NCBI GenBank assembly: GCA_003427395.1
Contig: BFEA01000018.1
Location: 2,942,905-3,004,741 of the forward strand
Reading direction: 5' to 3'
Source: Chara braunii
Lineage: Eukaryota > Plantae > Charophyceae
DNA: 61,837 nucleotides
Shown here: positions 28,621 through 50,369 of the stretch, piece by piece
Position numbering within the stretch: position 1 is the stretch's first letter
How the letters are laid out: the number at the start of each line of letters is the position of its first letter
The notes under the pieces: model-generated
The model's database searches: none
Told to the model about the DNA's origin: nothing
The model's input: the letters and a program-made list of their open reading frames with translations, nothing else
Program-made: the position numbers and the translations under genes

Positions 28621-29009
28621 TTTCCCTCTTTTACATACACACGCGTATACACATAGACATATATGCATATAAAGCAATAAAGAGAGAAACAGACAGAGAG
28701 AGGGAAGGAGATATACACATGTACACACACGGACGCACATGTATTTTTTTGCATCTGTTTGATAGGCATACATATACATACACAGACATAAACATAGACA
28801 GCTGTGACATTTCACAACGGGAAAGCGTGAATCCAGTCTGCATTGCTGCGGAAGCCACGGCGACCGGGATTAAGCATTGTGTCGACTCGAACCCCAAAAA
28901 GAACACATGACTGATGGGAGTAGATTGACCAAGAAGATCACTTATTGCAAAATCGAGACCTGCAGAAACAGAAAAGAAAGGTGGAATCAGTATGTTTGTC
29001 GTACAAAAC

Positions 29010-32000
29010 CGCTAAAAAAACGACGGCTGAACCAAGGGGCCTGTCTCAAAGCTCCATTGTGTCTATGGTCACTCCACCGCGGACCCGGATCGTAGCAAAT
29101 TGTAGACAGTGCGTATGCAAATCCGGGAACTGGATGGAACAGCAAAAGGAAAAGCAAAAACAAACAATCGTGTTAGCTGCAATTGGTATCAGTTTTCTCA
29201 CGTGGACAGGGTTTGTACAGCGGCGCAAGACCGCGGTAAAAAGAGCAAATCATATAGCGCGGCAGAAAAGTATAGTTATTTTACACAGATGCGTCTAAAA
29301 GAACGCAGGCCTATGAGCATCCAACAAGGATGCGGTCTACAGCGGCGCAAGACCGAGGCAAAAACAACAAAACGCACGGAATAGTAGAAAAGCATAACTA
29401 TTGTACATGGAAAAAACGACAAGCGGAACGAAGAGTCTGACTGAAAACTCCATTGCGTCTATGATCATTCTGCTGTCAGTTCAGGCTACAGTAAACTGCA
29501 GATGGTGTCTATGCCAACCCGGAACAGCAAAAGGGAAAGTGAAAACAAACAAGCGTAGTGGCTGTATTTAGTACCAGCGGCGTGAGTGTCTTTGGGGCGC
29601 TGACGCTGTTCCCCGACCTCTTTCTTGATGCGCCAGCTTCGTCATGATCGTTGTGGACCGGCGTCTTCTGCACATTGTACACGCGCCATCACAACACCTT
29701 TCTCCTCCTTCATCATCTTCTTCCATAGATAGTAACCTTCGGATGAGACGAGAGACGGACTTGCAAGAGCCAACGTCCGCCCCCCGATTTTCGTCCCAGA
29801 CTTCTTCTTTCCTGCCTTTGCATTCATCGAGGTCGTCGTTGCCCTCTTCGTTGACTCAGACTGTCCACCACTAACATCCTTTCGTTTGTTGGAAGAGGGA
29901 GCCACCCCTGCATTTGGGAAAGCAGTAGAAGATGTGGCCGTTGTGAACGAGTTGGCAATAGACACCTTCTTGGTAGCAGATGTCGTGACAGCAGCTGATG
30001 AGGCAGCAGATGTTGACGTAGCAGCAAATGGTTTGGTAGCAAATGGCTTGGTAGTGAATGGATTGGCAGCAGATGATGCGGCCTAAGATGACTTGGCAGC
30101 AGATGAGGTGGCAGCAAAACGGAAGCACAACATGCAGCGGCGCAGGAGCGTGACAAAAAGAGCGCAGCACACGGTAGAGCAGTAAATGTAGCTATTTTAC
30201 ATCGACGAGTCTAAAAGAACACAGGGTTGCCGGGAGCACACGAGGCACAGTTGAAAGGCACAGCTATTGTGCATGGAGAAACGACGACCGGAACGAAGGG
30301 TCTGTTTGAAAACTCCATTACGCCACGCCACGGATGAACATCCCAAAACCCGCGCGAATGTCTAAGCATAGGTAAAATGAAAACAAACAAGCAATCCACA
30401 GTAGCTTCGTCATACAGAAAGCGTAAGCGCCAAACAAAACGTTCTGCGTATGCTGCTCTGGGAACGATACGAAATGGGGAAACGAAAGCAACAAGGGCAA
30501 ATCACACACCATGGCAGAAAAACGTTTACAGGGATGCGAGTAGCATGCAACCTCCGCTGGCTGGGTATCACAAAGACAGACGTGTGCCATCATCTGCCGA
30601 CGACCGTGGGCGAGTGGTCATCATTGCTAGGTTGCAGGCCAACATATGATGGAGCCATAGATCTCTCAAGAGCCTGAACACCAGCAGCGATTTCTTAAAA
30701 GGCGGACGGCATGCGGCGAAGCAAGCGGCGAAACTGCTAAAAAAACGACGGCTGAACCAAGGAGCCCGTCTCAAAGCTCCATTGTGCCTATGGTCACTCC
30801 ACTGCAGGCCCGGATCGCGGCGAATTGTAGACAGTGTGTATGCAAACCCTGGAACGGGCTGGAACAACAAAAGGAAAAGCAAAAACAAACAACAACGCTA
30901 GCTGCACTCGGTATCAATTTTCTCACGTGGACAGGGTTTGTACACCGGCGCAAGACCGCGGCAAAAAAAGTAAATCATACAGTACGGTAGAAAAGTGTAG
31001 ATTTTTTACACAGATGCGTCTAAAAGAACGCGGGCCGGTGATCATCCAACAAGGATGCGGTCTACAACGGCGCAAGACCGAGGCAAAAACAGCAAAACAC
31101 ATGGCGCAACAGAAAAGCATAGCTATTGTACATGGGAAAACGACAAGCGGAACGAAAAGTCTGACTGAACATTCCATTGCGTCCATGATCATTCTGTTGC
31201 GAGTTTAGGCCACAGTAAACTGCAGACGGTGTGTATGCCAACCCGGAACAGCACAAGGGAAAGCGAAAACAAGCAAGCGCAATGGCTGTATTTAGCACTA
31301 GCGACGAGAGTGCATTTGGCATGCTGGTGTTGCTCTCTGGCTTCTTTCTTGATGCGCCGGCGTCGTCACGATCGTCGTGGGCCGGCGTCTTCTGCACATT
31401 GTACACGCGCCATCACAACACCTCTCTCCTCCTTCATCATCTTCTTCCATAGATAGTAACCTTCAGACGAGACGAAATACGGACGTGCAAGAGCCATTGC
31501 CCGCCCCCTGATTTCCGTCCCAGACTTCTTCTTTCCCGACTTTGCATTCATCGAGGTCGCTGTTGTCTTCTTCATTGACTCAGACTGTCCATCACTAACA
31601 TCCTTCCGTTTGTTGGAAGAAGGAGCCGCCCCTGCATTTGGAAAAGCAGTAGAAGATGTGGCAGTTGTGAACGATTTGGCAACAAACACCTTCTTGGCAG
31701 TAGATGCCATGACAGCAGCTGATGGGGCAGCAGATGATGACGTAGCAGCAAACGGATTGGTAGCAAATGGCTTGGTGGCAAACGGATTGGCAACAGATGA
31801 TGTGGCCTAAGATGACTCTGCAGTAGACGAGGTAGCACAGCATGCAGCGGCGCAAGAGCGCGGCAAAAAAAGTGCAGTACACGGAAGAACAGAAAGTGTA
31901 GCTATTTTACATGAACGAGTCTAAAAGAACCCAGGGCTGCCGGGGGCACTTGCGGCACAGTTGAAAGGCACAACCATCGTGCATGGAGAAACGACAACCG

Positions 32001-32441
32001 GAACGAAGAGTCTGTTCGAAAACTCAATTATGCCGCGCCACGGATGAACGTCCGAAAACCCGCGCGAATGTCTAAGCGCAAAAGACAAAATGAAAACAAA
32101 CAAGCAATCTACAGTAGTTTCGTCATACAGAAAGTGCAAGCGCTAAACAAAACGTTTTGTGTATGCTGCTCCGGGAACGCAGCGAAACAGGGAAATGAAA
32201 GCAACAAGGGCAAATCACATGCTAAGACAGAAAGCCGTTCACAGAGATGCGAGCAGCATGCAGCTTCCGCTGGCTGGGTATCACAAGGACATACGTGCGC
32301 CATCACCCGCCGCCGACCATGGGTGAGCGGTCAGCATTGCCAGGTTGTAGGCCAACATGTGATGGAGGCATAGATCTCTCAAGAGCCTGAAGACCAGCAG
32401 CGGTTTCTTGAAAGGTGGACGACATGCGGCGAAGCAAGCGG
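29010..32441. repeat. two tandem ~1.72 kb units with internal sub-repeats
   Basis: GCTAAAAAAACGACGGCTGAACCAAGG at 29011 and 30736; colinear, diverged copies. Confidence 0.93.
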
Positions 32442-33016
32442 CGGTCGAAACCGTGGACTGCAGGAGCATAGATCTGACGAGGACTTGGAGGTCGATCATT
32501 CAGCGGCGCCGCTGCGCAAACGACTGGAGGTGTAACAGCCATGTGCTGAACATGTGTATTGAAGGTTGACATCGTTGGATTGCATGTATAACAGTGGCCC
32601 GTCGTACGACGAAACGTGATGCAAGAACCAATGGTAGGCATCGTGTCCCGCGACCTGCAGCCATAGACCACGACCCTATGGACGTAGGACATTATGGCAT
32701 GCTGCACGAGGCATGTGCCAGTCGCGAATGCCCCATGTACGCGGCCAACAGCTTGCTGTTCATCGACACCCAGGAGATATACATGTATAATACGTTTAGG
32801 ACGGCGACAACGAACAGCATGGTGCACCAGTAGACCGCATTCCTGAACAACACCGGTATAGCGAACAGATTGGTAGCGAATGTAGTCCTCGAGTTCTGAC
32901 AGAGTAGTATGCGTGACATGATGATGCACAGGAGGTTGCTGTTGAAGCGCCTGCAGTATTGGGATGTTTTCCATCGGGGTGTCTGCAACAACACAATGAC
33001 AAGTAGAATAGAGCAT
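32303..33016 (-). CDS. unknown family X, paralogue B (putative OB-fold ssDNA-binding domain)
   Basis: HTTLSELEDYIR..ECGLLVHH..IHVYLLG..HRVVVYG..MPTIGSCITFRRTTGHCY..FNTHVQHM aligns with 33670, 49257 and 56850. Confidence 0.6.
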   Translation of the reverse strand: MLYSTCHCVVADTPMENIPILQALQQQPPVHHHVTHTTLSELEDYIRYQSVRYTGVVQECGLLVHHAVRCRRPKRIIHVYLLGVDEQQAVGRVHGAFATGTCLVQHAIMSYVHRVVVYGCRSRDTMPTIGSCITFRRTTGHCYTCNPTMSTFNTHVQHMAVTPPVVCAAAPLNDRPPSPRQIYAPAVHGFDRRLLRRMSSTFQETAAGLQALERSMPPSHVGLQPGNADRSPMVGGG

Positions 33017-33669
33017 TTATTGTCAGGAAACGCACGTCAAAATAGGCTCTCCTCCGCCCGCCAAATTGGACACATGGCCGGCGTAGCTATATTGCAGACA
33101 ATTTCCAATCTTCACACAGCAGATCGGCTGTTATGAAATACGAACAACGAAAGTAATGAAATCTCAAAAAAAAAACAAAGAACAGATGACGAGTTGTCCA
33201 TTCCATGGCAGATCTGAGCCGGGGAAACGGTCGAGTTTCCCAAAGCAAGAAAGCCGAGTTGAAATTTCCAAAAGGAGCAAAATGAATAAGAGAGACGAAA
33301 AAGCGACCATAAGAAAGCTGTGTTCGGGGCACCTTTCGGTCCAGGCACAGCAATGACAACAAAGCTAAGAATAATGGTAGAGGATGAGAAAAGAGGAGGG
33401 TGACGAGGGCGCCCAGCCCGGGTCCGAACTCGGGAGAATGCAGGGAGCGTGGCAGAGCATTCGTTTCAGCAGCCGGCCACCGAAACCAGCATTAGGCAGT
33501 ACAATTCTGCCCGCGGCGTGGGGGAGGGGGGCCAGGGCGCTGTGTCCAGCGGGTCAGTGGCATGCACCCCGCGGGCGCGGTGGTCGTAATGGTTTGCATG
33601 GCAGTAAACAGTAACAAGCGTGAGAACTATGCGAGTGAACGTGTCTGCGTCTCACCTTATTCGAGCTTG

Positions 33670-34188
33670 TCACAGGTTGTCGGATCCATGTGGTTTGCTT
33701 GAGCGCCCCGTGTTCGGAGGGCCCCGGGGGGCATTCGTTTCGGCAAAAGTCGGCGCTGCACTAGGCTTGTCTGCCTCCGCAGGAATCAGGGGTTGCGGGG
33801 GCATAGTGCGCATGTTCGTGTTGAAACACGGTATGAACTGTTTGCCGAAATACTTGTGCCCTGTCGTGTGACCGAACGTGAGAATAGTCCCAACCTCTGG
33901 CAATGCGCATCTTTCGTTAAAGTCGTAGACAGTCCCTCGACGCAGAAGCGGCAAGATGTCATTCTGTGTTTCGCCATATGTGTTTGACAGAGTCCAATGC
34001 GCAGCTTGCACCGCATCTTCCTGGTCCATGTCTGCGAGCGTGATATCGAGCACGCACGTCTCACCCGCCCACCTCCAAAGATGGTGCACAAAGTATCCTT
34101 TTTCGATGATCTCTGCTGGCACCTTCGGCTTACCATTTTGTGTAGCCTCTTCTCTTCGCGCGGCCTCTTCTCTTATATACTCTTCCAT
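33670..34188 (-). CDS. unknown family X, paralogue A (putative OB fold); frame open upstream to about 34350
   Basis: HTSTLQMEEYIR..EKGYFVHH..LDITLAD..RRGTVYD..LPEVGTILTFGHTTGHKYFG..FNTNMRTM. Confidence 0.62.
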   Translation of the reverse strand: MEEYIREEAARREEATQNGKPKVPAEIIEKGYFVHHLWRWAGETCVLDITLADMDQEDAVQAAHWTLSNTYGETQNDILPLLRRGTVYDFNERCALPEVGTILTFGHTTGHKYFGKQFIPCFNTNMRTMPPQPLIPAEADKPSAAPTFAETNAPRGPPNTGRSSKPHGSDNL

Positions 34189-34437
34189 TTGCAGGGTGCT
34201 CGTGTGGATGATTTCGTTGCGTTTGACTCGTTTCTGCTCCCTGGTTTCATTTTGAATGCGTAGTCGCTCACGCAGGCAAGGCCGATCGCGTTTAAGTGGC
34301 GGGAGCGCTGCAGGCGCACTATCTCCAACGTTTTGGGAGGAAGCGATAATCTGGACACAAAATCACGTACGTAGTGTGAGCGTCGAAAAACAGACGCTGA
34401 ACAGGTGCCAAGAAAACCAGAAATGGCTTAGCGGAAA

Positions 34438-35238
34438 TCATGTTCTCCGCCGAGCGCAGCAGTAGGGTGGAAGAACGGGAAAACTTAAATGAGGGTGCGG
34501 AGTTATGGATTTCAGGACTTTGGTTATAAGTTCGTCGTGAATGAACGATCGATAAAAGCGTATGTCTTGTTGGCCGAAATTGTTTATAGGCAGGTGGGGA
34601 GGCCCGATCAACAAATGTCGAATCATAACCAGCATAAAAACACCACAATCATACGAGTTTGTTTGAGCAGGGCCTCGAATGTTGAAGCATTGTATGGTGG
34701 CAAGGGCATTGAAAGCATCAGAACGACGACACAACCATTGGCGCATGTTTCGAGAAAACACAGCGTTGGAGTGGCCAAGGTTATCATCGAAGAATAATTG
34801 TTGGTTGTTTATATCAATGTACCCAAGTGCCCAATGATTACCATGCATATGTAGAGGGAGGAAAAAATGTGCAAACGTAGACGCGAGTCTTGGATAGCAC
34901 CGAGTGTCAATGTTTTGGTCGGCGAACGAGAAGTCACCGCATGCGACGTCGTGGACGTATGTAAAACTGTTCGCGGCGAGCACCGATGGAAAAGTGTCCA
35001 TCAGCAAGTCCATATAGTCCCCAATAGGAATGTCACTAAGCCACGCTGTTCCATGGAGACTACAATATACACAGTCCGCCGTAAATTGCGACTTGCCGTG
35101 AGGCGGCGTCCAAGACACAACGGGAACAGATGAACAAACAGAGAATAGCAAAGGTTGCGGGTCGAGCTGCAATGATGGAATGTTTGTTGAAGCAGCAACG
35201 TCGCCTGCGTGCATCGGCGCGTGCGGCCGCTCGGCCAC
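34438..35238 (-). CDS. Ulp1/SENP-like C48 cysteine protease
   Basis: WLSD...FFLPLHMHGNHWAL...FFDDNLG...PAQTNSYDCGVFML: His, Asp, Gln and Cys all present. Confidence 0.9.
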   Translation of the reverse strand: MAERPHAPMHAGDVAASTNIPSLQLDPQPLLFSVCSSVPVVSWTPPHGKSQFTADCVYCSLHGTAWLSDIPIGDYMDLLMDTFPSVLAANSFTYVHDVACGDFSFADQNIDTRCYPRLASTFAHFFLPLHMHGNHWALGYIDINNQQLFFDDNLGHSNAVFSRNMRQWLCRRSDAFNALATIQCFNIRGPAQTNSYDCGVFMLVMIRHLLIGPPHLPINNFGQQDIRFYRSFIHDELITKVLKSITPHPHLSFPVLPPYCCARRRT

Positions 35239-35482
35239 CGAGGTTGTATGCTCGACGAGGGCATCGTTCGGGAGCCTGTCATCAGTGAGAGAGGAATCAG
35301 AGGTTTCACTTGAAGAAATGGCGATCCGAGGCCCCAGATAGGAAGGGAGAAGGCACGAACGTTTTTTAGGCTGCGGTTGTTCATGGGCAGATGGACAGAT
35401 AGAGAATGGCGAAGACCGTGGGTTCAGCTGTGATGGCAGAACAGTCGTCGAAACAGCAGGAGGGGTCGGTGTGCGTGATCAT

Positions 35483-38400
35483 TTACCTGCTGGGGTTGTC
35501 CAGTCTGCAAACGCGCCGTTCGGGGGTCCGATCGAAGGCTTCAAGTGGACGAGCGACGATCTGCGGCCTCGAAATGGAGGTAGAGCAAAAGGCCAGAGCA
35601 GGGGATAGGGTAAGATCCGAAAGTTTGTCAAGGCGCAATTGCTCACGGACAACAGATGGATTTGGCTGGAAAAAGGTTGCGAGGTCCTTTGTGAATGGCT
35701 TTAAAATTACCAAAGCAGAACGGTTGACAACACGGGAGACAATGATTTAACCCTGTTGCGGGACGTTGTGTTTTCGTTTGTGGCCAGCATTGGGGCGCGC
35801 TTTCCACTCGACGACAACGAGAGATGTCAATGTCTCTCCTTGGATCCTGTAGACGTTCGAAGCGACATCAGACACAAATGGAAATTGGAGAGGTCGCACG
35901 TGGCATGTTCTCTGGGGCATTCCTGCACCGGTCGGGAGGTCGACCTTCGCAAAGCCGTATGGCTGTTGTCTGAACGTCGGGTAAACATCCGAAGGCAGGG
36001 CGACAGAAAGCGCAGCAGGGAGCTGTTCGAATGCGGAACGATGGGGGACGCGCACAAGAGCGAGGTCCGGCGGGGAGCTAGGAAGCAGCACGCGAATGTT
36101 TGCATTCGTGTCATGGAACAGTGCAAACGTCGTATGTTCAGGGAACCATAAAGAGTACAGAACACCGTAGGTTCTATTTGCGATGCCTCGAGCGGGATCT
36201 ACGTTCTGGGTGAATAAAACCGACATCCCGGGTAGACGGTCAAGGAACGCAGCGAATCGTCTGAGTTTGTTGTCCGGCAATGACATTATGAATTGTATAT
36301 CATGCGGTTTTCTATTTTTGAATTTTGCGCCGAAGTCTGCCACGATGCGAACAGGTTGATGATCACAAGGCAGCAGTGCACACAACGTGCGCGTAAACGA
36401 ATGCAGTAGCTGTGTACGATTGTCGTTATCCGGGACAACGAAAACAGGGAAATGGCCACCTTTTGGATTGACAAAATTCCGGCGCAGGTCGGGGTTGATG
36501 TTTTCCAAAAGTCTACTGTTGATGATATCTATAAAATCGTTTTCCCATATGCCCCGCCTGGCGTTTTTACAGTGGCGGCCCCATTCGGGGTCTGATCTAA
36601 ACCGAACGGTCTCGGTTAGAACAACAACCGTGTCGAAGAGACGCCAAAGCTTGAATGCTTCGTGGTCGGCGGTCGTGTCTGCCTTATCCAATGAAGGATC
36701 AGAATACACCGGCGTGTTGTTAACAGGGGGAAGCTGGAAGAAGTCTCCCGTAGGCAAGATATGCACACGACCGAAGGGGATATCCAGCTTTCTGGCTGCG
36801 CGCAGAGCTTGGTCAAGTCGAAGGAATGCATCTTTGTCCGTCATGTTGAACTCATCGATGATGAGTAAATCTAGTTCTGGCGTGAAGCCGGGTATGCCTT
36901 TCAGCTGCGCCTGGCGACGTTCGAAACAGTAATCAGCTTTGAGGTTGTGCATCACGAACCAGCTATGGAATGTCACCCCGGCGATGGAAACTGCAGCTTT
37001 GCCAGTCATTGCAGTTTTGACAACGCTGTGTGGATGCTGCCATCTTTTAGCAAAGGCATCGATGGCAGCGATTACGTGGGATTTGTCGGTGCCACCCTCT
37101 CCGGTGAGGAACATGAGGAGCTGCTTTTTTTCAATTACACCGGCCATAGCTGCCAGCGGCATCGGCGTAGGTATGTCTTCAGCTGTCGTTTTGGAGAGTC
37201 AGGTCCTGAGAAGGGAATCAGCCAAAAGAGAGAAAGCAAGGTGTTGTTTGCGATTGAGCGAGAACTGCACCGAGACATCAGAGATTGTAGGGAACAAGGA
37301 GTCGGGCGGTGAAGAGGGCTTTGTGGTGGGATTGTTAGCGAACTCCTTATTCCAAGGCTGAAGCGCGTTTGTGATCAGGCGGAGACGAGTGGGCCGAGGC
37401 AGCTAATGCCAGGCGTCGGGGACAGCACCGACATCTTCTACCAGAGGCGGCGCTGCTTTTGCCCAAGCGTGGATAGTGTTAAGATCGCCAATGGTTTGTC
37501 TCAGGAAACAGTTGGTCGATGATAAGTCGCCTGGGGCGAAGCTCTTACACATATCCAGTGCGATTGTTGCGCAGGATGTCATCAATTCAGACGACAAACC
37601 TGACGCATAGCCATCAGCTATCATTGACACGATTATGGCATTGTCCACGCGACCCGGCTCCACGCTATTTTGTGAGTCAGTGTCAGAAGGAGGACACATT
37701 GGTATAGATGCGTTCGATGAGCTATTAGGCATCCCACCCGAGGAGGCTGCATAGAGAACGCTTGCAGTTTGATCGGACGCTCTTTGATTACGCATTTCTG
37801 CTGCACGTTCTCATGCGACATGGTAGTCTTGCATTTGTAGGTAAATGGCGCATAGAAATGCAGGCATCTGTTCGTAGAATGAAAGGAAAGCATCATGCCA
37901 TGTGTTGCTGGGCGTAACTAAATCCGTCAGAATCCGAAAGGGTTTGAATAGCAAAAGTGACAGTTGCGCGTGCAAAGTTTTGGCTGCATCGTCGTTGCAT
38001 ATTCTGAGATCAGGAACGCGTGTAGAATAAGGCACGACAGGGATTGCGGGAAGTCTCTTGCGTGCCAATGCTTTGCGCTTATACAACGGATGGTTTCGAA
38101 GGAAGCTGCCATCGGTTTTGGAGGCAGCTGATTTCGTACAAGTGTAAAAATGCATCGTGAATTCGTAAAGAGACAGATGCGTCAATGCCAATGGTCGGAA
38201 AACGTAATCATCCAAAGGTCGTTTCACAGCAAAGCCCGCAGGCGCTCTCTCCAGCGAACACAAAGTGCCGGGATCATTTTGCAGCTGTTTCAGCATGTGA
38301 AAAAGAGGGAGTGTTTTGAAACCGTGGCTAAGATACACGCACGACTGCCGTAGCAGATATAGTGCACATAATGGGCCAGCGGTTTCTTGTTTGTTCGTTA

Positions 38401-41300
38401 TACTGAAAAGTTGAGAAGCAAGGCGGCGACGTGTTTTCGTTTCCGCTGACATTTCTGTACGCTCCTCTGCCAACTTTTCTCGCTCACAGCGTGCATCGAA
38501 CACAGCCAAGCGCAGTGCGACTTTGCAGTCAATTTTATGTTGGTCTTTGGTAGCATATCTGCAACAATAGCAGATACGGTCTGTCGCCTCTGCGCCACCG
38601 AATAGAGGTTGTATGTCGTGGTTGCATTTAAATCCAGCGAGCATAACATCATTGTAAGCGTTAATATATTCGGCGCCGAGGCCCCGCCGGAGTTCCACTC
38701 CGGAATCGTGTAAAACTGTCCGTTCGCAATGCGTCCGAGGGAACAGATAGTGACAGACTTCTGCGTTTTTGGTCATACGGGTATTCTTGAAACACGACCC
38801 AGTGTGAGCCCAGTGGTGTGTTTGGACAAGGAAAAGAATCAATGGCAGTGCCGACCAAAAAGAAAGCAAGCTCAGTGGCAGCGCAAGCATTCTGTTGCTT
38901 GTTGCGTGTGTGTGGAACGGATCGTCTGTGAGTTTAGGGTACGAAGCTGGAGCAGCGTTCTGCCAACGAATGTCGTCATAGGCGGGAGATGGAGTAGCTT
39001 CCAGGATGCTCTGGCGCTGCATCTGGTGCGAACTAATTAAAGCATGACAGTGTGCACATTCGGCGCTCGGCGGTTCGACCAATAACTGTGGTTTGCCTTT
39101 CCGGAATGGCGAGCACCGGGCTGACTGCGGGAGCGTATGCATTTTGTAAGTCGGCGCCGGTGCATGGCAGTGTGCACAAGGCAGCCGAGAAACATCTTGG
39201 GATGCAGATGCAAAAACAATGTTGTCCACGTATTCCGTAACGCGATCAGCGAGCGACGCATCTGCTTCCAGCAAATTATCGAAATCACGAGTTGTGGGCG
39301 GCGTGTTTTCAAGCCAGACGAGGCAGTGCAAATGCAATGTGCCGCGGCCCTGCGTTTCCACCGTTCCAAAATATGCCCGCACGGGCCCGAAGAGTCCGCC
39401 CCCGGGTACACTTTGCTGAGTCGTGCGGTCGAATCCCAACACTTTGTTAAAAAATATGGACATCAGCCGATCAAAAAGCCGCGCCGAAGCAATATTGTCG
39501 GCCATGGATAAACGCTTGAGATCTTCTGTCTCGACGTAAGGGTTATCGATCAACACCGCGCAGAATGCTTCCACGTCGAGAAGACCAACGTACGATGCAA
39601 GCGCGAACGAGGTGTCAGTGTTCGGGGTCAACGTATCGAAAATCGTCGGCTGACCGAAACGGTCGCAGGTGGCGAATGCTTCTTGACGGCGTGCACGTCG
39701 CTCTGCGTTGCTGCCCCAAACATACGCTGAAGCGCATTCAACATGACGAAGCAGATCTGTGACCGCCGGATCCGTATCGGGCGTTTTTAAGCCGGCTGTT
39801 CGTCGACGGGTGTTTTCCAAACCTCTGCTCAGCATTTCGGTCGTGACTCCGGCGATATATTGATGCAAATGGGGTTGCATTCTGCACGTGAGGTGCGAGA
39901 ACATGTATCCACGATTTAGCGGAAGATGGTCGAAGGCGGCCATGCAATAATACAGATCCTGCTCAAAGCGCCTGGAGCTCAGCAGACAATAATGCCTCGC
40001 GCAGAGCTGGCGCAAAGTGGTGACTCTTCGTCCTTCTTCGCCGGGATGCCCGCGTCCATATGGGAACAGATGCGGGAACATTTTGGCTTCTAGCGTCGGC
40101 TTAAAAAGGTTGGCGAATTTTGACGAAGTGTGGAGCATGAAAACCGGGTCGTTGGCTCGTCCAGCCTTCAAGAGTTCGACCACACGCTGTTCGACAATCG
40201 GATCCAGTGGCGCAGTGGCGTGCGAAAAAATCACAGACTTTTCAATGTAAGTTGTCTTGGTGGTTGTGCCCGGAGGGGCGTTAAGACCATCCTGTTCATG
40301 GCCCAACAACTTTGCATCGGCGTGATCATTCGACAGGTCTCGGATGACAAGCGTCGGCACAAACGCGGGATCATCGCGCGGAATGCTGTCAAGAACTTCG
40401 TCATCATGTTTTACATCAGAGTAAAGGACATTAAACGTCGTGTAAAAGTTGAGCAGGTTTTCCACCATCGAATGTCTGACGCGATGTAGCTTCTTAATAC
40501 GTGCCACCTGACCATCTGTAAACGGTCCTGCCAAGATAATGCGATAGAACGTATCTTTTGTTATCGACCTGGGAAGCAAAGTGGCTGTCGGCCCGGGCAC
40601 CAAGTCGAAAACGAGCAGATGGGAAAGTATCGAACGATGCCACCCACCGCGCATCACTCTCGTCTGGGCGAGGATATTTGTCAGGCTTGTCATAAGAAGC
40701 TCTGCCCAGGTCGCGCTCTGCAAAGCGGGAGGCAGCGCGCCGACAAAAAAATGATTGGCGATTGCGAATTTCGGGAGGCGAGGCCGGCAGCGTGAACAAA
40801 AAAGCGGTTGCTCGCAGGCGTCGCATATGTTGAAATGGACACTGCCGTCGGCGAGCTGCACAATGCCATTTCGCGACAACATGATGCCCAAGAAAACCGG
40901 AGACAAATCTTCGCAGCTATAATGCTGCACAAGATCTGGATATAACGATGAATCAGGATTATATAAAACTGCACGCATACGGTCGATGATGTCTGTCTCA
41001 GAAGACGGATGGATATTGACTTCAGTGCATAACACCAGTTCGTCACACACACAGCATACGAACTCCTCAAGCTTAACGGGACTGAGTTTGTCAACCAGAC
41101 GGCCGACGATCGTGTTTTTCAACGCTGGCGAGATGACAGAGGGGAACGGCGGACGCAAGGAATAACGTGCTTCTCGATCCTGGGCTAGTCGCTGTAAACA
41201 TGAATATATCACAGCTTCCGCAAAACGGCCAGTGACGATTGTCGGGGTTGATGGCTCGGGGTTCGAGACGCCACAGGAGAGGTCGCGTATGCAGAGTGGG
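35483..41300 (-). pseudogene. Helitron-like Rep-helicase: CxxC pairs + DUF6570-like region + HUH Rep + PIF1-family SF1B helicase
   Basis: One reading frame through ORFs 37811-41212, 37403-37795, 35747-37162 and 35483-35713. Rep motifs PTIFDTLTPN, ETQGRGTLHLHCL, YCCRYATK; helicase motifs GEGGTDKS, LLIIDEFNM, GDFFQLPPV, LTETVRF, YRIQGETL, *IIVSRV. In-frame stops at 37811, 37403, 37199 and 35747. Confidence 0.93.
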
Positions 41301-42585
41301 GAAACCGCCTGCAGAGAGATGCGTGCCGGCGGGGGCAGGGGGGGGCCGTTTCATGCGGGCCAATTGTTTGAGCCTGACAAGCTTCACAAAGGCAGTGCCG
41401 CAGAGGGGGGGCATTTCATGCGGGCCAACTGTTTGAGTCTGATAGGCTTCACAAGCGAAGGCAGTGTCGCGGGGCTCACCTGAGAGCCGAAACAAGAAAC
41501 GGGGGGCGCAAGCAACGTCGTGCCCGTACCTGTGAGAGGGCGTTGCGTATTGCGTTTTCTTTCCCGCGCATGCAGCGTCTCGCTGCAGGCGCTCGCGGCG
41601 AACGGTCTCAGTTTCGTTTAATTTCCGTGTCCGTGTCGCGACCCGTTTTTTGCATAGACGCTCTTCTCGCTGCCCTGCAGTCTCCGCGTGCGTCCGCTAC
41701 GTATTTCCCCTACCGCACAGTGTGGTACGAATGAGATGGAATAAGCGGTCCACCGCATGGTGCGGGCGGGCAAAAAGCGGTAGCATGTTTACGTAGAGCC
41801 AATAGCAAAGCGACGGAAAGATGTGAGAGTTGCGAAGAGAGAAGTAGAGGGAGAAGGAAAACACTAGAGGGAGAAAGCCAGGAAGCAAAAAAGGCAAAAG
41901 AATGAATCGCGGGTTTACAATCGTGGAAGGAAAAGACAAAAGGGGCCGCAAATACGTCGCTGCCTGCTTCAGGGTCCTGAGCTGGTTTGAGAGGAGGGTC
42001 AAGGAGAGTGAAGGAACGAGCCCGGGGAAGTTTTTTTTCGGGTTTTTGAGTGCGTTTCTTTGTTTGCCAAACATTTTCCAAGACGTGTCAACAAGCTGAG
42101 AGACCACGATCTGTGTTTATGTCTGAGTATATGTATGTATGCCTATCAGACGAGACCAGACAAACACATGAGGAAGGAGAATATGTGCGTTTGCATGTAT
42201 ACGTATATCTTTCTTCGGAGTCAAAATACCAGGATAAGTAGACTGAACACGCCCCGCCGCTACATTACCTGTAGACAAGCGTCGACCGCACCTGCGAGCA
42301 AAATCACAAAGAAACAGCCATGCACAATTATAAACATCATTAGGCGCGGGAGGGAAAATGTGAATACATGTTGTAATGAACCGAACGCAAACGCAGGCAT
42401 ACTTAAATGTCACACAGCAAACCGCTTCTTCCTATAACAGATGGCCGGATAATCGGCAACGGGAACGGAGAGGGGCTGGGGAAGGGGGGGGAGGGGGGGA
42501 AGGGGGGAAGTGAAGAGGGGGGGGGGGCGAGCAAGGAGGGGCTCGGCGGAGAAGCGAACGCACCCTGCGACGGACATCGGTAGCC

Positions 42586-43230
42586 TCATGCGTACGCAGC
42601 GCCGTGTGGAGGCTGAACTGGCAGCAGCGGAAAAGACGCGATGGACGATGTGAAAAGCTCATCATGGAGATGACGTCTGTACGTCGGAATATCCAAGTAT
42701 GAAAAAGCGTCAGCATGCGACGATGTTGGCGAAGCCAGCAAAAAACGCAGCATCACGAGCATGAACACGCCGCAGTCATTGTGATTATACTGGATCGGCC
42801 CATCTATATAAACGACCTGCATGGAGAGGGGTGATTGCGGGATCGTGGTCTCTGTTTGTAGCCATGCAAGCAAATCACGGAAAACGGACAGATGCTGGTT
42901 ACCGTAGCTATCGTAAATGCAAAGGGTCGAATCTTTGACGACAAAACATGCCAGCGCCCAATGGCTGTTGTTCAGATGCAATGGAAAGAACCAGCGCCCG
43001 AAGTAGCAAAATGGTTGGCCAGCGGCGCGCGGAACAAGCAAATCATGTGCGAAGCGGTAATCCCGGCAAGCAATCACGAAGCTGTATGTATAGCATGATG
43101 CGAAAAACACGTCGGGGAACAGGGGCATAAGAAGTTTCGTGTATGTATCAATGTAGATATCATTCAACCAATTCTGGCCATGCAATGCACTGAAAGCGCA
43201 CTGCGAATGGCGAACAACGTAGTCTGACAT
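42586..43230 (-). CDS. second Ulp1/SENP-like C48 cysteine protease
   Basis: WLNDIYID...WFFPLHLNNSHWAL...IYDSYG...PIQYNHNDCGVFML; catalytic residues intact. Confidence 0.92.
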   Translation of the reverse strand: MSDYVVRHSQCAFSALHGQNWLNDIYIDTYTKLLMPLFPDVFFASCYTYSFVIACRDYRFAHDLLVPRAAGQPFCYFGRWFFPLHLNNSHWALACFVVKDSTLCIYDSYGNQHLSVFRDLLAWLQTETTIPQSPLSMQVVYIDGPIQYNHNDCGVFMLVMLRFLLASPTSSHADAFSYLDIPTYRRHLHDELFTSSIASFPLLPVQPPHGAAYA

Positions 43231-44322
43231 CGCGATCTGTGTTGCTCATCGCGCCTGCGGCGAACGTTCTGCATCAAACATAGCAGACGGCCGTATATAA
43301 GAATCGCTACAGACAGCAACTGACACGCTGCATTCTCCACGCCCGGCGAAACAGATAAACACATTGGGTAAACGAAATGTGAAAGTGGGTGGAAAAAAGC
43401 ATTCCCCTATAACGGATAACAAAACGGGCATGACTGTTTTAGACGCAGAGCAGGAAAAAACACCGGCTGGAAGCGATCGTCGATGGATGGCTTTTCGCTG
43501 ATAGAATTTCGGATATAAGCCACCGCCAGGGGGACTGAAGGAGTGCAGCACAAACAACAATGGCCAGAGCAACAATGAAGAGACCGAACAAAACAAAAGC
43601 CCGAAGCGAAGCCGGAGGACGTACCTTCGCCGAGGCACGCCGACTAAGGCAAACTATAGCGCGGAATTGGCCGGAGCAGTTTGTGAAGCAGAATAAACTG
43701 CACGATAAACAACAAAGATATGAGCGCAAATATGACGTAGTCAAGAAGTCTACACATCGACGGGCGTCGACACTGCCGAGGCGTTTTCGGAGCAGTGCGC
43801 GCCGGCTGAATCGGCGCCTCCACGGGGCGCTTTGGAAGCACATATGTTTACGGCGACGCCTGCGGGATAAGCATAAGTGGGTGCACAGGCTGTATCGGCG
43901 TCGGTCGCAAAGGCTCTGATGAGGACGAAGATTCAGTCCGCTGGCGATGTTTATGCTTCCTCGAAGTCAGAGGCACGTTGTGTTTCTCTGACAGTCACCG
44001 CTTTTGCGCTTTTTCCATTGCGGGGAAAAAGGGGGGTTCTTCCCGGTCACCCGAGCCGGGTATTTGCCATGCACACACATAACCAATAAACATACACGCA
44101 CACACACACACACCTCGTCATTTCCAGCGCGTGCGCCATAGCAACTTCGAATTTCGAAATTGAACTCCCGATGGCGAGCCGGCATAGCAAAGCAAGCGGA
44201 CGTCGCGAAGGCTGACAGCGCAATGCCCCACCATTCAAATAGCATTTTCTTCATTACCATGTTGTTTTCCCCTCTTAGCTCACCGCATGTCGATTATAGG
44301 ATCGGAGCTGCCAGCGCCCGGA

Positions 44323-44637
44323 TCGCAAGCTTCATCCTGGCCATGGTTAGATCACCCGGGTTCAGGCCCATAGACAGTGACATTAGCCCTAAAAAGACTT
44401 GCTTTCGCTATGGCTCCGGTGGATAATTTCCCTTAACCAAGCCATTGCCTATGAGTCGCCGGCTCATTCTTCAACAAGCACGCAGTCAAAGATACAATTC
44501 TCCTCCCACTGCTTGAAGGCCTACGGTTTCATGTTCTCTTTCACTCCCCTATGGGGGTTCTTTTCACCTTTCCCTCACGATACTTTTTCGCTATCGGTTA
44601 CCCAGGAGTATTTAGCCTTACGAGGTGGTCCTCGCTG
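44323..44637 (-). rRNA. rrn23: plastid-type 23S rRNA fragment (nuclear plastid DNA insertion), not a functional gene
   Basis: CATGGTTAGATCACCCGGGTTC...GAGTCGCCGGCTCATTCTTCAAC...GGGGTTCTTTTCACCTTTCCCTCACG...GAGTATTTAGCCTTACGAGGTGGTCC is the reverse complement of conserved 23S domain I/II sequence, chloroplast style. Confidence 0.9.
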
Positions 44638-44888
44638 GTGGGGCCCCTGTCTGCCAACTGCCCCCCGCCGATATGGCCATCTGCTCGACGAACTTTTTTC
44701 CCTTCGGCCACTGCTAAACACTAAACGGGAGAGATTGTAGGTTCCAGCACAAATGATTAACAACTAGACACTTGTGACATCTCCTAATGTTTCCAGGAGG
44801 CGGAAAAAGAAAGAAGCAGAAAACGAAAAGAAAAGAAGAAAAGAGAAACGGAAGCGCAACAGAACATCTGAAACTTGCAACAACTTTT

Positions 44889-45299
44889 TCAACTCTGCAC
44901 CCCATTTAGGCAAGAGACGCCAGAAAGCACGGACAAAACGGCACCGTGAGAGAGCACAACAACACTCACGTGGGCAACGTTACAGCACGGCGGAGTCCTC
45001 CTGCTGAAGCCGTACAATGCCGACAAAGCTGAGCCGAGCGCCAGTCGACGAGGCGTACCACACGTCGCATCTTTCGAGAAAAAAGATATGTATCGCATTC
45101 GGACGAACGTCGAATCGCATAACAAACATTCTCCGATGGCATCTCTGATGCGACATATCTGGGCTTCGATGTCTTCCCAGTGCCGGTAATCGCGGTTCCT
45201 TTCATGGGGCACCACTTGCATCCTGTTATCTAGGACTGTCAGCGTTATCAGTCTCTCACCATCTTCGGACAGATACCTCGTGGTGTAGGTTGCAATCAC
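44889..45299 (-). CDS. ORF of unknown function in the Helitron cargo
   Basis: 136 aa, ordinary composition, co-oriented with neighbours; no motif recognised. Confidence 0.3.
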   Translation of the reverse strand: MIATYTTRYLSEDGERLITLTVLDNRMQVVPHERNRDYRHWEDIEAQICRIRDAIGECLLCDSTFVRMRYISFFSKDATCGTPRRLALGSALSALYGFSRRTPPCCNVAHVSVVVLSHGAVLSVLSGVSCLNGVQS

Positions 45300-45469
45300 G
45301 GCAGCAGCCTGTGTGATTTCTTGTCAGAATACCCCATGCCCGGTCTGCAAACATTGTCTTGCGCGGTCTCGTACTGCTGTGTCCGCCTCACGTTGGATGG
45401 CGATCCATTCAGCAGAGTGTTGTGCGTGGCGTGCACAAACAAGGATAGAACGCCGACAGACGCCGGAAA

Positions 45470-45906
45470 AGTTTCAGCCAGGTCCTTGGCGACGCCGAGA
45501 CGTGCGTGAAATCCAGTGTGCGCATGGCGGGGCCTATTTCCTGTGGGCAATATACTTGCTAGGGTCTCAACTGAACACGGGGCAATACGATAACACGTCC
45601 CCATTCCAGCATGGTCGCAAAGCGACAATCGTTCGCCCACAGACAGTCCGATAAAGTAGCAGCCCAGTCGTCCTCAGACCAGGTGTGCAAAGGGTCAGCG
45701 CGCCAAGGCACAACAGTCAGCCACTGATCCGTTTCAAAATCTGTTCGTGTGGCGCCCACAATCTCTGTTGACTCTTTCGACCCTTGGAGGGCAACCGCTC
45801 GTGGTTTCAATGGAAATGCGGCAGCGGACTGTTTATCCATTTCCGAGACGCGGGCAAAGTTTGCCAGGTAATATTGCATCGTACGCTGGCATACACAAGG
45901 CAACAA
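45470..45906 (-). pseudogene. unknown Trp-rich family Y, copy 1
   Basis: LTVVPWRADPLHTWSEDDWAATLSDCLWANDCRFATMLEWGRVIVLPRVQLRP*QVYCP; similarity to copy 2 continues past the stop. Confidence 0.55.
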
Positions 45907-46079
45907 TGGTCAAAACAAGTCAAAGACTGCAACACCACCCGAATTTTCCCAAGTCTGTTACACTACACCCCATTGTCAACATAAAGCTCCTCATACATGC
46001 TTCTCTCCGTGTGTTATGCATTCCCCCCTCACCCTTCTTCTTCTGTCATTTTTCGCCCAGCTTCCCAATTTCTATTCGG

Positions 46080-46530
46080 TTCAGCCAGGTCCCTGGCGAC
46101 GCTAAGAAGCGAGTGAATTCCAGCGTGCGCATAGCAGTGCCTATTTATCGCGGGCAGTATACTCTGCGGAGTCTCAACTTACAACGCGGCAATACGATAA
46201 CATGTTCCCATTTCAGCATGGTCGCAAAGCGATAATCGTTTGCCCACGGACAGTCCGACAGAACAGCAGCCCAATCGTCTTCAGACCAGGTGTCCAAAGG
46301 GCGAGATCGCCAAGGCACAACAGTCAACACCGGACCGGGGAGGGTCCACCGGGCACACTTCGGAGTGTTCCAAGGTAGGGTAGGGATATAAGTTGCACCA
46401 GCCAGTGCGAGGTTCATCCGCCCCCAGGTAAGCTACGGGAAAGGCGACAGAATGCATCCGTGGACGTTGGCTTGCCTTGGTTAGGTACTCTTGCTGGGTC
46501 AGCTCCCAGAGTCGGTATGAGGCCACTGCC
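46080..46530 (-). pseudogene. unknown Trp-rich family Y, copy 2
   Basis: LTVVPWRSRPLDTWSEDDWAAVLSDCPWANDYRFATMLKWEHVIVLPRCKLRLRRVYCPR*IGTAMR; offset about 600 bp from copy 1. Confidence 0.55.
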
Positions 46531-48780
46531 AAAAGCTTCTATATGGAAACGTTCGCGAGTTTTCGCTTCCACTACAGTTGTGGATTGGCTCAAGCCTGGT
46601 AATTATCGTTGCTGCCCGGCCCGCATGGAGCCATCTTCTTTTTCTTATGTTGTCAGAGTTTTGAATCGTGCGCAGAACAATGCAAAAGGAACCTTGCCCG
46701 CTTCGACTTCGACAAGCATTCTGCGAACAACAACGAGGCCCACAGGCGCACGATTTGCTGCGTTGCACCGACTAGTGTGAGGCCCATTCGGCCTTGGGCC
46801 AGTTGCAGGGAGGGCAGCAGGATCTGTCCGTGGACGCCGGTTTGCCTCGGCCAGGCATTCTTGCTGGGCGGGCGCTAGGTTTCCACCAGAAGTCTCTGTA
46901 TGACAACGTCTGTGCGCTTTCACTTCTACTAGAGTTGTGGATTGGCGCTTTCTCTATCTCCCTCTCTCTCTCTTTCTCTTTCTTTCGTTTTTTTACTGTT
47001 TGTGTGTGTGCGTGCGTTTCTATTAGTATATGTGTATGTGTGTGTGTGTATCTGCACATGCGTAGAAGCATACACTCTCTGATCCATTTATGCATTATTG
47101 CTTACACACACATGCAACTGCCTTTTCCCTTTGTCGCCACATCCATCAAGCAGTCCGCCGGTCTCAGATAGCCGGTTTCTTGTCACACCTGTGCACCGGT
47201 GTGTGTGTTCACCTGTTTTTATCTGGAATACAGGTATAACAGGTTTGCAAGAACCGGAACCCACTTTAAACATAGCGATACTCACGCACTGTTGATTGCA
47301 GCACCGTCAGACGTTTAGACCCCAAAGCGCTCGCTCTTGTATCTCCACGCTATAATGGCAGCATGACACGAACCAGGTCAACAGATACGCAATAACGGTG
47401 ATTAATATCGCCACTGACTAGACACATATATTAACAAACATTCCCATCGCAAATTGCAAGCTTCCAACGCGCGATCGATCCCTGAAAGTGTTTCCATGGC
47501 ATTGATGGTGGGGGGAAGGAAAACAGAACAGTGCACGCCAACATAACGACGTACTGCAGCGTAAGCTCTTTTCAATGTCGTTCCACAGCGTAGGCTCTTC
47601 TTCCCTACATGCTCGATTCTTTTGGTATTTGTCTATCGCGCTGCTCACATGGCCCGTCTCACTGAAGCACTCGAACACGATTCAAGCTCCGGTTCTCCTC
47701 ACATACATCTTCCCTCGCGCTCTCACTCACAAATCTACCGCCCGGCCGACAGCACATAATCGAATAACCACCCGATTTGTGCAATGTCAGGGCACCACAA
47801 CAGTCTTGTGCCCGTCAGATTTAATCAATCATGAACTACCAAAAGAAACTCCACAAACGACAGGCAGAACCTACGAGAACCAAAGAGCAATCAGATCAGA
47901 TCTGCAACAAACAGGTAAACTTATCAAATCCAAGAAGAAGGGTAAGTAAGGGTTCGTAACAACCGGAGCGGACAACATGAGACTGAGTGTCAAATGAGGC
48001 TAAGCATCAAGCAGGAGCAGCATCAGGAACTAATGAGAATTGGATAAATTCTTTTAGTACGAGTATGGGAAAAGAAGAATAAGAAGAAAAAGAAGAGGTC
48101 TTACTTACATCATTCGCCGCTGGTTTCCGCTTGTAGTACGCTAGAACCTTGGAATCGAGGACAAAGTATCTCTTACGCAAATATCTACGGCCAAGACTGT
48201 GGCGACCAAACGTGAACAGTTGCGGGAGAAAAGGAAAAGAACGAACAAGAAAGAGATTTCATACTATGCGCTATGTTTGTTGTGTTCGAGGTCACTTCAG
48301 ACCATAGTTTATGGTATGTTGTGTTTGCGGCCGGCTACAGTACGTACTATGTGCGATATGCGATGCGACCCATTTTCCAGTTGTACACGCAGGAAACAAA
48401 AAAGAAGCTGCTTTCATCAATGGGTCGAATAAACGCAAAATGTTTAACTATAATGTGAGAATAAACACTGACCTTTTCCCCTTTCTTTTTCTTTCTCTCT
48501 TTCTCTCTTTCTCTCGCTCTCTCTTTCTCCCTTTCTCTCGTTCTTTCTCTCTCTTTATACATATATATATATATATGTTATGCTATCCGGTGCCATATTA
48601 TGCTGCTAATAGTTCGCATGGCGTATCAAGTGCGCAGAACTCTGATTCCGGATGGTCTGTCGACAATTCAAAGACCGTGCCAGCTACGCCCCCCCGGCAG
48701 TCTGTATGCCTTGTTGGCAACACCATGCCAGAGAGTTGCACGTCAACGGAACATATCGATGCAGTCACCCGTTCATCCAT

Positions 48781-48858
<78 letters not shown>

Positions 48859-48859
48859 N

Positions 48860-48934
<75 letters not shown>
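48781..48934. repeat. (TC)n microsatellite
   Basis: Direct reading. Confidence 0.95.
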
Positions 48935-48937
<3 letters not shown>

Positions 48938-49256
48938 ATAAACACATAGCCTGCGAACGAAAACAAACATACATAGCCGCCGAGCATACATATTGCGACA
49001 TGCATACACAATTATTATATGGAGAGCAACAAAGCAAAGACAGACAATACACACTAATTCGTCTTCAATGAATTTCAGCGATCAACGGTTGTCAGCACAC
49101 CAACCGAAACATTGTCCAGCCATGAATAAAGGAATGGGTATAAGCTAACAAAGGTCGGAAAAAATCAAAGAAGCAGCCTGATGTATACACGTAAATGACC
49201 AGGCAAAAATAGCACCCCAAAAAACAAGGACACCCTACTGTACAAAAACCGGAAAC

Positions 49257-49727
49257 TCATCTTACGTTTTCAGTGCGAGCCGTTGCATCGGACAAAGACG
49301 GTCTCTCTTGAACGGCGTGTTTGAACACGATGTATGAGCATATGCCGAAAGTCCACATCAAACAAGACTGCAGAGGGACGCCAACTAATCTATGGTTTCT
49401 GGTCTGGAAAAAAGTCACATGATCGCCCGGCTCAGGAACTGCACGGTGACGAGGGTAATCACGAATGACCGCTCTCCGGACAAACGGTGTAAGGCGCTCA
49501 GATAACGGACAGCGGTCGGCGAAGAAGCGGTGGAAATCAGACACCAGGAAAGACAAAGCTTCATCAACGAGATATAGATCGACGGCAAGAGAGTTTTCGA
49601 TAGCGCAAACGAGTGGGCCGACAACATAACCACGCTCTATGACGTTTTGATGGGCGTGGGGGGGACATCTGGTGATGTAATTTTCCAAGGCTTTTGTTGT
49701 CCTGTGCAGAATACATACATAAGGCAT
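49257..49727 (-). pseudogene. family X, paralogue C (putative OB fold), 1-bp frameshift near the 3' end
   Basis: [53 protein letters not shown]; diverges from copy D after QSC because of one missing A at about 49360. Confidence 0.6.
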
Positions 49728-50369
49728 CGTGTATAGACAGAACAACGGAAACTTCCGGGTGTAATGGTGTTCACAATACACCAGCACAACAAGGGACAAA
49801 ACGAAGAAAGCAGACGTCAAACGAGGGTCGGTTTGTCCCGAACGCCATGTATACAACAACTACCCCCCCCCCCCTCCCCCCTCCGTCGGACCATTTTGTT
49901 TCGAGCATTTGTAGAAGAACAAAAGAAGGCCAGTAAACCATATAGTAAACACACATACAGGACACATGCTCTTTTCTTTCTTCATTACTCCCCCCCCCTT
50001 TGGAAAAAAGCCACAAGGAGTTTATGGCAACACCAGCCGGCCCAATCCCTCCCGACAATCACCATATTCCCTTGACAAAAACAGCAATTGTTTTATGAAA
50101 TCTGATATCCACGCATTTTCGCAACAGTTGCGAGTTTTCTAACGCCGCCTCACCCCGGTACGTGTACAGATTGCTCCGCCGCTGCCCCGACCCATTCGTC
50201 TACCGTATCTATATCATCATTGCTCCGAAATTCCCACCCCTGACGTCAGCCACTCGGGAAAAGCTTAATTCACAGCAGCTACTCAATCTCCGCGCACTCC
50301 ACATGCCCCGCAGTTGCCCCCTCGTTAGTCATCTATTATGAATCCCTTGCAAAGACGAGGATCAGGTAC

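Follow-up and report, generated by a model that had tools for sequence, protein, structure and literature searches.

A stretch of 61,837 nt from the charophyte alga Chara braunii (contig BFEA01000018.1, positions 2,942,905 to 3,004,741; hereafter the window) contains a Helitron-like element flanked and interspersed by accessory genes. We consider it likely that this element is a dead copy of a multi-copy Helitron of the HLE2 (Helitron2/Helentron) group, that it extends over ~24 kb, and that it carries as long-term cargo Ulp1 proteases and a protein family, here termed X, with a predicted oligonucleotide/oligosaccharide-binding (OB) fold. An earlier note on this DNA, made from the sequence alone, had placed all the recognisable open reading frames (ORFs) of a ~17-kb stretch on the minus strand, and a re-reading of their coordinates agrees. 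In transcription order the named ORFs are X(C), three copies of a family Y, an ORF termed U, Ulp1, the Rep-helicase transposase gene RepHel, a second Ulp1, X(A), and X(B). The features, in window coordinates, are as follows.

49257-49859, minus strand: X(C), a member of family X with a frameshift close to the 3' end
46645-46953, 46145-46432, and 45559-45909 (region 45412-46953), minus strand: Y copies, three broken local duplicates with weak coding signal
44889-45323, minus strand: U, ORF of 144 aa, no relatives found
42586-43245, minus strand: upstream Ulp1/C48 protease, open frame, catalytic motifs kept, Pfam E 2.6e-12
35483-41696, minus strand: RepHel pseudogene, main frame 41350-35483 plus a 5' piece (41091-41696) in a different frame
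34438-35478, minus strand: downstream Ulp1/C48 protease, Pfam E 1.9e-10, preceded by a Pro/Ser-rich linker
33670-34362, minus strand: X(A), family X, predicted OB fold
32303-33016, minus strand: X(B), open family-X ORF (exon 32303-32982, ATG 32973), exon of a probable spliced transcript
47290-47350, minus strand: upstream non-coding exon joined to X(B), GT donor at 47289
44178-44609, minus strand: 23S (large-subunit) rRNA fragments found with Rfam, captured or inserted
~48107-48200, minus strand: PH-domain-like exon, likely a captured host gene fragment
56841-57306, minus strand: a fourth X copy, stray and beyond the CpG block described below, with 95% identity to X(C)
29006-32443, minus strand: 1.7-kb tandem duplication, two copies 87% identical, beginning within the X(B) tail
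28565-28620, minus strand: long hairpin where the CpG block ends on its 3' side, an unproven candidate for the 3' terminal stem-loop
28600-53000, minus strand: stretch that the element is inferred to occupy (~24 kb), with undefined ends, the 5' one probably in or beside the gap 52740-53074

The RepHel gene identifies the element. A Pfam scan covered 24 window ORFs, of which four passed curated cut-offs: a 1179-aa Rep ORF, a 483-aa PIF1 ORF, and two Peptidase_C48 ORFs; the X, Y, and U ORFs were without any match. RepHel matched Helitron_like_N (E 1.3e-21), DUF6570 (E 3.4e-19), and PIF1 (E 6.9e-21), and an HUH Rep with the motifs GTLHLHCLVW and RYATK (catalytic Tyr motif) shares the frame 41350-35483 with the PIF1 helicase. 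These matches bear out the earlier description of the element as Helitron-like. AP endonuclease (Exo_endo_phos), which in Helentrons follows the helicase as a fusion, was matched neither in the 24 ORFs nor in P0029, a full-length metagenomic relative, and with DUF6570, Helitron_like_N, PIF1, and no endonuclease, RepHel is of the HLE2 type. The main frame is interrupted by four in-frame stops (37813, 37405, 37201, and 35749), the STPR-like N terminus (41091-41696) lies in another frame through an apparent frameshift, and the Walker A motif reads GEGGTDKS where homologues have GxGGTGKS. Therefore, the window copy is incapable of making an active transposase.

The annotated C. braunii protein CBR_g19772, on a 6.1-Mb scaffold, is 100% identical to the window Rep, and a second Chara Rep, CBR_g31939, is 73% identical. 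Two protein searches with Rep, in each of which the best 7996 candidates were scored, returned at least 17 and at least 6 proteins. Among the matches listed were metagenomic proteins up to 43% identical over long stretches, proteins of Nothophytophthora (36%) and Phytophthora palmivora (35%), and basidiomycete proteins (25-28%), so that oomycetes hold the nearest named relatives outside Chara (35-36%) among these matches. No relative of RepHel was detected in the scans of viral contigs or of prokaryote genome contigs. A quick tree of the DUF6570-Rep region was built from 38 rows, with fragments shorter than 250 aa and the duplicates P0001, P0029, P0034, and L001 omitted and P0035 falling outside the region. 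The window Rep grouped with P0002 (the element of metagenomic locus L001), P0036, and L002 (SH-aLRT 97), and this group was nested in a 16-row set with both oomycete proteins (SH-aLRT 95), apart from the fungal rows. The window branch is long, and the tree is a quick one; we therefore treat horizontal transfer only as a hypothesis.

Base composition suggests how far the element extends. The observed/expected CpG ratio is 0.87-1.31 in all 24 of the 1-kb windows from 29001 to 53000, while a ratio of at least 0.87 occurs in 1 of 28 windows in 1001-29000 and 1 of 8 in 53001-61000. This single CpG-rich block suggests an element of ~24 kb, larger than the feature first noted, with ends near the hairpin at 28565-28620 and the gap at 52740-53074, one of two assembly gaps (the other is at 26539-26574). 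The hairpin has a perfect 13-bp stem and a folding energy of -23.2 kcal/mol for a 101-nt region, and the sequence directly upstream of it recurs at 25749-25840. HLE2 elements characteristically have terminal inverted repeats that are short and asymmetric, a hairpin, and insertion at a T-T site. No inverted 13-mers (at most one mismatch) indicative of terminal inverted repeats were found between 28400-29100 and 51800-53300, a 5' zone that includes the 335-nt gap; three controls gave 0, 0, and 4. A 60-bp inverted repeat (42110-42170/28738-28798) was considered as a terminus and not accepted, because related sequence recurs at 25749-25840 and its bin is of high depth. This short repeat occurs three times (25690-25840, 28738-28806, and 42110-42170), once inverted, and its 25.7-kb copy, flanked by a 36-nt direct repeat (25645-25680/25840-25875), is possibly a small non-autonomous element.

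The distinct composition, the oomycete affinity of Rep among the matches listed, and the gaps at 26539-26574 and 52740-53074 are what would be expected if DNA of an oomycete or another associated eukaryote had been mis-scaffolded into the Chara assembly. We regard this as very improbable, since the 3' edge of the block is free of any gap, five other Chara scaffolds, 0.6-4.0 Mb in size, bear annotated genes related to Rep and X, and a near-identical spliced contig (see below) comes from a second study with the same species label.

Sequencing contigs argue that the Helitron is a repeated component of this genome. Contigs were mapped to 30731-48400 at 85% likeness in 30 bins; the DNA run X1 is possibly the assembly's own sample. 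The 1435 X1 contigs aligned comprised 367 at ≥99% identity, 240 at 95-99%, 544 at 90-95%, and 284 below 90%, so 828 of 1435 were less than 95% alike, and all 30 bins were covered, with the proviso that summed contig depth is not copy number. Together, the 73% identical second Chara Rep and the diverged contigs show that the element is a dispersed multi-copy family. In one X1 contig the helicase end is linked to the downstream Ulp1 via a different 267-nt linker, and another joins Rep (38613) to Y1 (45585); as single contigs each, these joints are suggestive only. Several X1 contigs also contain opposite-strand joints at 45302-45465, inside U/Y1, a sign that other copies carry an inversion.

Both Ulp1 frames are open, and the Trp (WLND-type), His, Asp, Gln, and Cys motifs align and are kept. 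Their best relatives of solved structure were SENP5 (E 1.6e-11) and yeast Ulp1 (E 1.8e-10), with weaker matches to deubiquitinase/deneddylase proteins; such similarity would be compatible with specificity for SUMO, NEDD8, or ubiquitin, and a role in de-SUMOylation is presumed from family membership. The two window Ulp1s are ~36-37% identical to each other and 27% identical to the Ulp1 of locus L001. The downstream gene begins at the end of the RepHel frame, in a different frame, and judging from L001 it was likely once fused to RepHel.

In order to place this cargo in a wider context, we compared 31 metagenomic loci, the eight closest being L001-L007 and L023. L001, the same element as P0002/P0029, has a RepHel 42% identical to that of the window, which continues in frame into a C48 domain (P0029, a 2728-aa ORF, E 1.3e-17). 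Just upstream of RepHel, at 852-1217, L001 encodes a homologue of X, detected with a profile that drew only on the copies in the window (E 2.5e-9, against 0.32 for the next best match and 0.19 for the best reversed control) and given a probability of 95.7 by hhalign. In L005, C48 pieces stand directly behind the helicase (4400-5502, several frames, E 9.1e-14). This Ulp1 appears to be interrupted by several introns, which the L001 and Chara versions lack; it may be translated as a spliced RepHel-Ulp1 fusion and is possibly a separate capture from a host gene. Two of the eight closest loci extend beyond the helicase, and both have Ulp1; L001 is the one with enough upstream DNA, and it has X. The occurrence of X and Ulp1 beside a distant RepHel in L001, and of Ulp1 in L005, makes it likely that the helper genes travel with the element. 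CpG observed/expected ratios are low in L001 (0.45) and L002 (0.32) compared with ~1.0 in the Chara block, and their hosts may therefore methylate CpG.

Family X is divergent. X(A) and X(B) share 26% identity (E 6e-17), X(A) and X(C) 23% (E 6e-8), and paralogues overall 23-29%; by sequence they are true but distant paralogues. A word-index homologue search with the X alignment gave 0 of 789 candidates. A full HMMER scan of 1.84 billion representatives gave six matches, of which four were strong, all hypothetical proteins of Chara on scaffolds other than that of the window; the two weak ones, P0022 and P0023, were treated as chance. In one Chara protein, CBR_g49252, X(C)-like and X(A)-like stretches are adjacent. 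Since the gene numbers of these four X proteins are far from those of the annotated Chara Reps, X seems also to exist apart from RepHel in this genome. Comparison of X(C) with the stray copy gave a dN/dS of 0.20 (9 synonymous and 6 non-synonymous differences; Fisher p 0.003), a purifying signal between these copies. A 6-nt tandem repeat of 31 copies, reading Glu-Pro on the plus strand, abuts the stray copy at 56645-56830.

The nature of X was approached through structure prediction. The RPA and Ssb-like_OB Pfam profiles had no match in the X proteins of the window, Chara, or L001; a search of the ESM Atlas yielded no usable match for X(A), and a sequence search of the PDB with X gave none at E ≤ 10. 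An AlphaFold2 model of X(A) from eight sequences reached a pLDDT of 88.7 and a pTM of 0.81. Foldseek returned nothing at E ≤ 0.001 with this model; its best rows were MCM/MCM10, telomere end-binding protein, Stn1, RPA, and SSB. VIA-align, run over 48,161 chains, placed maize MCM10 with single-stranded DNA (ssDNA) at the top (Z 7.6, rmsd 2.9, 102 aligned), followed by Teb1 OB-B (Z 7.4). OB domains occupy the top rows in both PDB fold searches. An OB fold is therefore a good prediction for X, and ssDNA binding may follow from that predicted fold.

Transcript evidence bears on X(B). One contig of run X5, which we guess to be RNA, corresponds to 31435-32982 with 5 differences in 1548 nt and is joined from 32982 to 47290. 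The joint has GT..AG on the minus strand (CT..AC as read), with the acceptor AG at 32984-32983 and 61 nt on the upstream side, and skips 14,307 nt that hold Y, U, both Ulp1s, RepHel, and X(A). The upstream 61 nt are without an ATG, and the start of X(B) lies 9 nt past the acceptor. Reads in the sense direction cover X(B) in X9 and X11. In two oligo-dT runs, of which 6% and 13% of reads were used, X(B) bins had a depth of 2.8-6.4, sense-oriented provided that the library was made in the common way, and RepHel bins 0-0.34. Many 3' reads differ from the window copy and may come from other copies. These observations suggest that X(B) probably continues to be produced, with its transcript spliced over the middle 14.3 kb, and that RepHel is nearly untranscribed.

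The same observations raise the alternative that X(B) belongs to Chara as a gene, or forms an X-only element of its own, into whose 14.3-kb intron a smaller Ulp1-RepHel-Ulp1-X Helitron and other debris were inserted. The GT..AG junction 47290 to 32982, with 5 differences in 1548 nt, and the silent RepHel would fit, as would the four Chara X genes elsewhere, whose tails are long and near which no Rep is annotated; the 60-bp inverted repeat 42110-42170/28738-28798 suggests other possible boundaries. We nevertheless find this unlikely. Both exons and the intron lie inside one CpG block distinct from its flanks, contigs of diverged copies also span the 5' end of X(B) and the upstream spacer, and outside Chara an X homologue was found only beside a RepHel.

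The remaining genes give a different picture. Y1 and Y2 share 83% DNA identity over 248 nt, and the Y copies are frameshifted; being so close, they are local duplicates rather than deep paralogues, and the divergence the earlier note had ascribed to the cassette's paralogues does not extend to Y. The dN/dS of Y1 against Y2 is 0.39 in the called frame and 0.59-1.14 in the other five (p 0.014, uncorrected, for the best of six frames). Fold prediction for Y1 failed (pLDDT 32.5), U scored only below 0.9 in the ESM Atlas, and neither Y nor U had a match among the 31 metagenomic loci. A by-eye likeness of Y and U to X was discarded, since hhalign scores of 13.7 and 10.4 fell within those of 60 column shuffles each (best 18.4 and 18.9). 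With no relatives found, the membership of Y and U in a common toolkit, as first proposed, cannot be shown.

Several passengers were identified. The 23S fragments match Rfam RF02541 (E 2.2e-19) and RF02540 (E 3.9e-12), are of bacterial/organellar type and 79-83% identical to cyanobacterial and other bacterial records, and are presumably of plastid origin. The PH exon matches Pfam PH at E 0.0014, under the curated cut-off. The 1.7-kb duplication contains a fragment of a high-copy repeat (~31420-31740; summed depth 1894 in bin 31320-31908), and its joint, 32443 to 30731, is present in X1 and X5 contigs. Upstream of X(C), within the CpG block, a unit with a period of ~560 nt and short degenerate ORFs is duplicated at 50247-51291. 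The rRNA fragment, the PH exon, the high-copy repeat, and this 50.2-51.3-kb unit represent ordinary capture and duplication within the block. Part of the cassette is thus recent duplication and random capture, which the earlier note had dismissed. A 224-nt direct repeat of 74% identity (44642-44863/52095-52317), adjoining the 23S fragment and close to where the 5' end is presumed to lie, may be the trace of an old internal duplication.

Such passengers could also indicate that the region has accumulated from elements nested independently of one another and from captured fragments, and that only the helicase-adjacent Ulp1 belongs to the Helitron. Besides the rRNA fragment, the PH exon, and the high-copy repeats, the stray X(C) copy at 56.8-57.3 kb and the lack of homologues for Y and U speak for this. 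X adjoins RepHel in L001, though, diverged copies cover the region evenly, with a deletion joint from Rep to Y1, and the two window Ulp1s share more identity with each other (36%) than with that of L001 (27%). A nested pile accordingly seems to us unlikely, slightly more so than a host-gene X(B).

Several observations weigh against an HLE2 element with Ulp1 and X as long-term cargo. Neither termini nor an empty site nor a second full-length copy was seen. Ulp1 was not found in the other 29 of the 31 loci, nor X in the other 30, most of which are truncated or distant; the 2000-aa Nothophytophthora RepHel, P0007, and P0010 stop at the end of the helicase and have no C48 listed, P0003 is among the proteins that stop there, and linkage of X to RepHel outside Chara comes from one lineage. 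Within Chara, the four X genes on other scaffolds have gene numbers far from those of the two annotated Reps. The fold matches of X all lie below Z 8 and above the Foldseek threshold of E 0.001. The splice comes from a single contig of a run guessed to be RNA, and no 47290 to 32982 junction was seen among the reads listed from 6% and 13% of the two RNA runs. Finally, a (TC)77 run containing an N at 48859 separates X(C) from the remaining genes; it is a probable contig join, past which X(C) sits, and the linkage of X(C) is less secure for it.

Much of this cargo has precedents. HELIANO (PMC11417382) counts Peptidase_C48, RPA, Ssb-like_OB, and STPRs among 20 domains that are carried stably, gives DUF6570 likewise as stable cargo and proposes it as a marker of HLE2, and describes HLE2 from land plants; those of its supplementary tables that were searched do not contain "Chara braunii". 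The window element resembles the HLE2 described there in its RepHel with DUF6570, and differs in the missing AP endonuclease, the two Ulp1 genes flanking RepHel, and three predicted OB genes outside the Pfam OB families. Proto-Helentron-Pi of Phytophthora infestans (Thomas et al. 2014, PMC4067079) is likewise a large (~14 kb) element with an endonuclease-less HLE2 RepHel, accessory ORFs, and captured fragments. The window Rep groups with Phytophthora palmivora and Nothophytophthora proteins; the proto-Helentron-Pi sequence was not among the rows of the tree. The cargo of that element, in contrast, consists of SET, TIR/ankyrin, and hypothetical proteins. SET and TIR were not found in the window ORFs scanned; for SET the scan comprised 24 ORFs and included small or broken ones only partly. 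The ends of proto-Helentrons are 5'-TT and 3'-CTAG, with insertion between A and T (PMC4067079).

RPA-carrying plant Helitrons and Mothra (PMC4683698) share with the window element an element-encoded single-strand-binding helper, and Mothra, which keeps RPA without RepHel, is a precedent for X-only loci. These are HLE1 elements with a multi-domain RPA70, whereas X is a single small OB domain with no match to RPA by sequence. At least three independent acquisitions of single-strand-binding proteins (SSBs) are described there, and X is possibly a further one by Helitrons. The Ulp1 of Kaonashi/KIU elements, in a non-TIR Mutator-like element (VANDAL), is another transposon-borne Ulp1 that has long been kept and is linked to anti-silencing elements; those are cut-and-paste DDE elements of flowering plants with Ulp1 fused to VANC, and not RepHel elements (PMC13317346). 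The earlier note knew of no Helitron family with this architecture. Our literature search likewise found no description of the cassette or of family X, with Repbase and the Chara genome paper outside the search, so that absence from print is not established; C48 and OB cargo are already listed for Helitrons. The element is not a new class. What appears to be new is an OB family without a name, the RepHel-Ulp1 fusion, and a probable RNA contig spliced over 14.3 kb to X(B).

In Helitrons the HUH Rep makes the nick, PIF1 displaces a strand, and a circular intermediate is formed (PMC5148889). In an active ancestor of the window element, Rep would have nicked the element end and the PIF1 helicase would have peeled off one strand, which X proteins, given their predicted fold, may have coated in place of RPA. 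The Ulp1 domains, one of them likely fused to RepHel, might have stripped SUMO from the transposase or the element's chromatin and thereby resisted silencing, as their family membership would allow; alternatively, they may have processed the RepHel fusion, as proposed for the OTU proteases of Helentrons (PMC4067079). Extra genes would have arisen mostly through internal duplication (X three times, Ulp1 twice, Y three times, and the 1.7-kb 3' repeat), and captured scraps such as the 23S rRNA and the PH exon would have added further bulk. The idea of an element-encoded toolkit is supported in part, for Ulp1 and X, which recur beside a distant RepHel, with the predicted OB fold fitting ssDNA handling, and is unsupported for Y and U.

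The cassette had also been called virus-like. Several co-oriented, compact ORFs and one long-range splice might be expected of an endogenous virus, or of a virus-transposon hybrid with a true viral gene set. That origin is the least credible of those considered: no relative of RepHel was found in viral contigs, the eight window ORFs tested against PHROG gave nothing significant (none below E 0.06), and no capsid or packaging gene was present among the 24 ORFs scanned.

Two observations in the flanks touch none of these genes. Three copies resembling U6 snRNA, which pass the Rfam gathering score (3415-3516, plus strand; 6008-6091, minus strand; 25088-25195, plus strand), are probably dispersed pseudogenes or parts of repeats, and a 615-nt unit, AT-rich with internal inverted repeats, is tandemly duplicated at 19002-20216 (92%).

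More speculatively, and with considerable doubt, we suggest that the Chara Helitrons form a distinct HLE2 lineage with its own OB-fold SSBs and a RepHel-fused SUMO protease, horizontally transferred to Chara from an oomycete-like or other associated eukaryote. Its helpers would be spliced from one leader exon past the transposase, and in Chara the OB gene would have persisted beyond the transposase and multiplied into a family that is expressed and under selection, either of semi-autonomous helpers or of domesticated SSBs.

Accessory genes of Helitrons have been catalogued, and their roles are untried. To that catalogue the window element adds a recurring pair, a small protein with a predicted OB fold and an Ulp1 that is fused to the transposase in a relative. 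It may represent one more SSB that Helitrons captured independently, and it extends an apparently oomycete-allied HLE2 clade to a charophyte alga. With L001/P0029, a relative that appears intact, one could ask directly whether rolling-circle transposition gains from ssDNA binding and de-SUMOylation.

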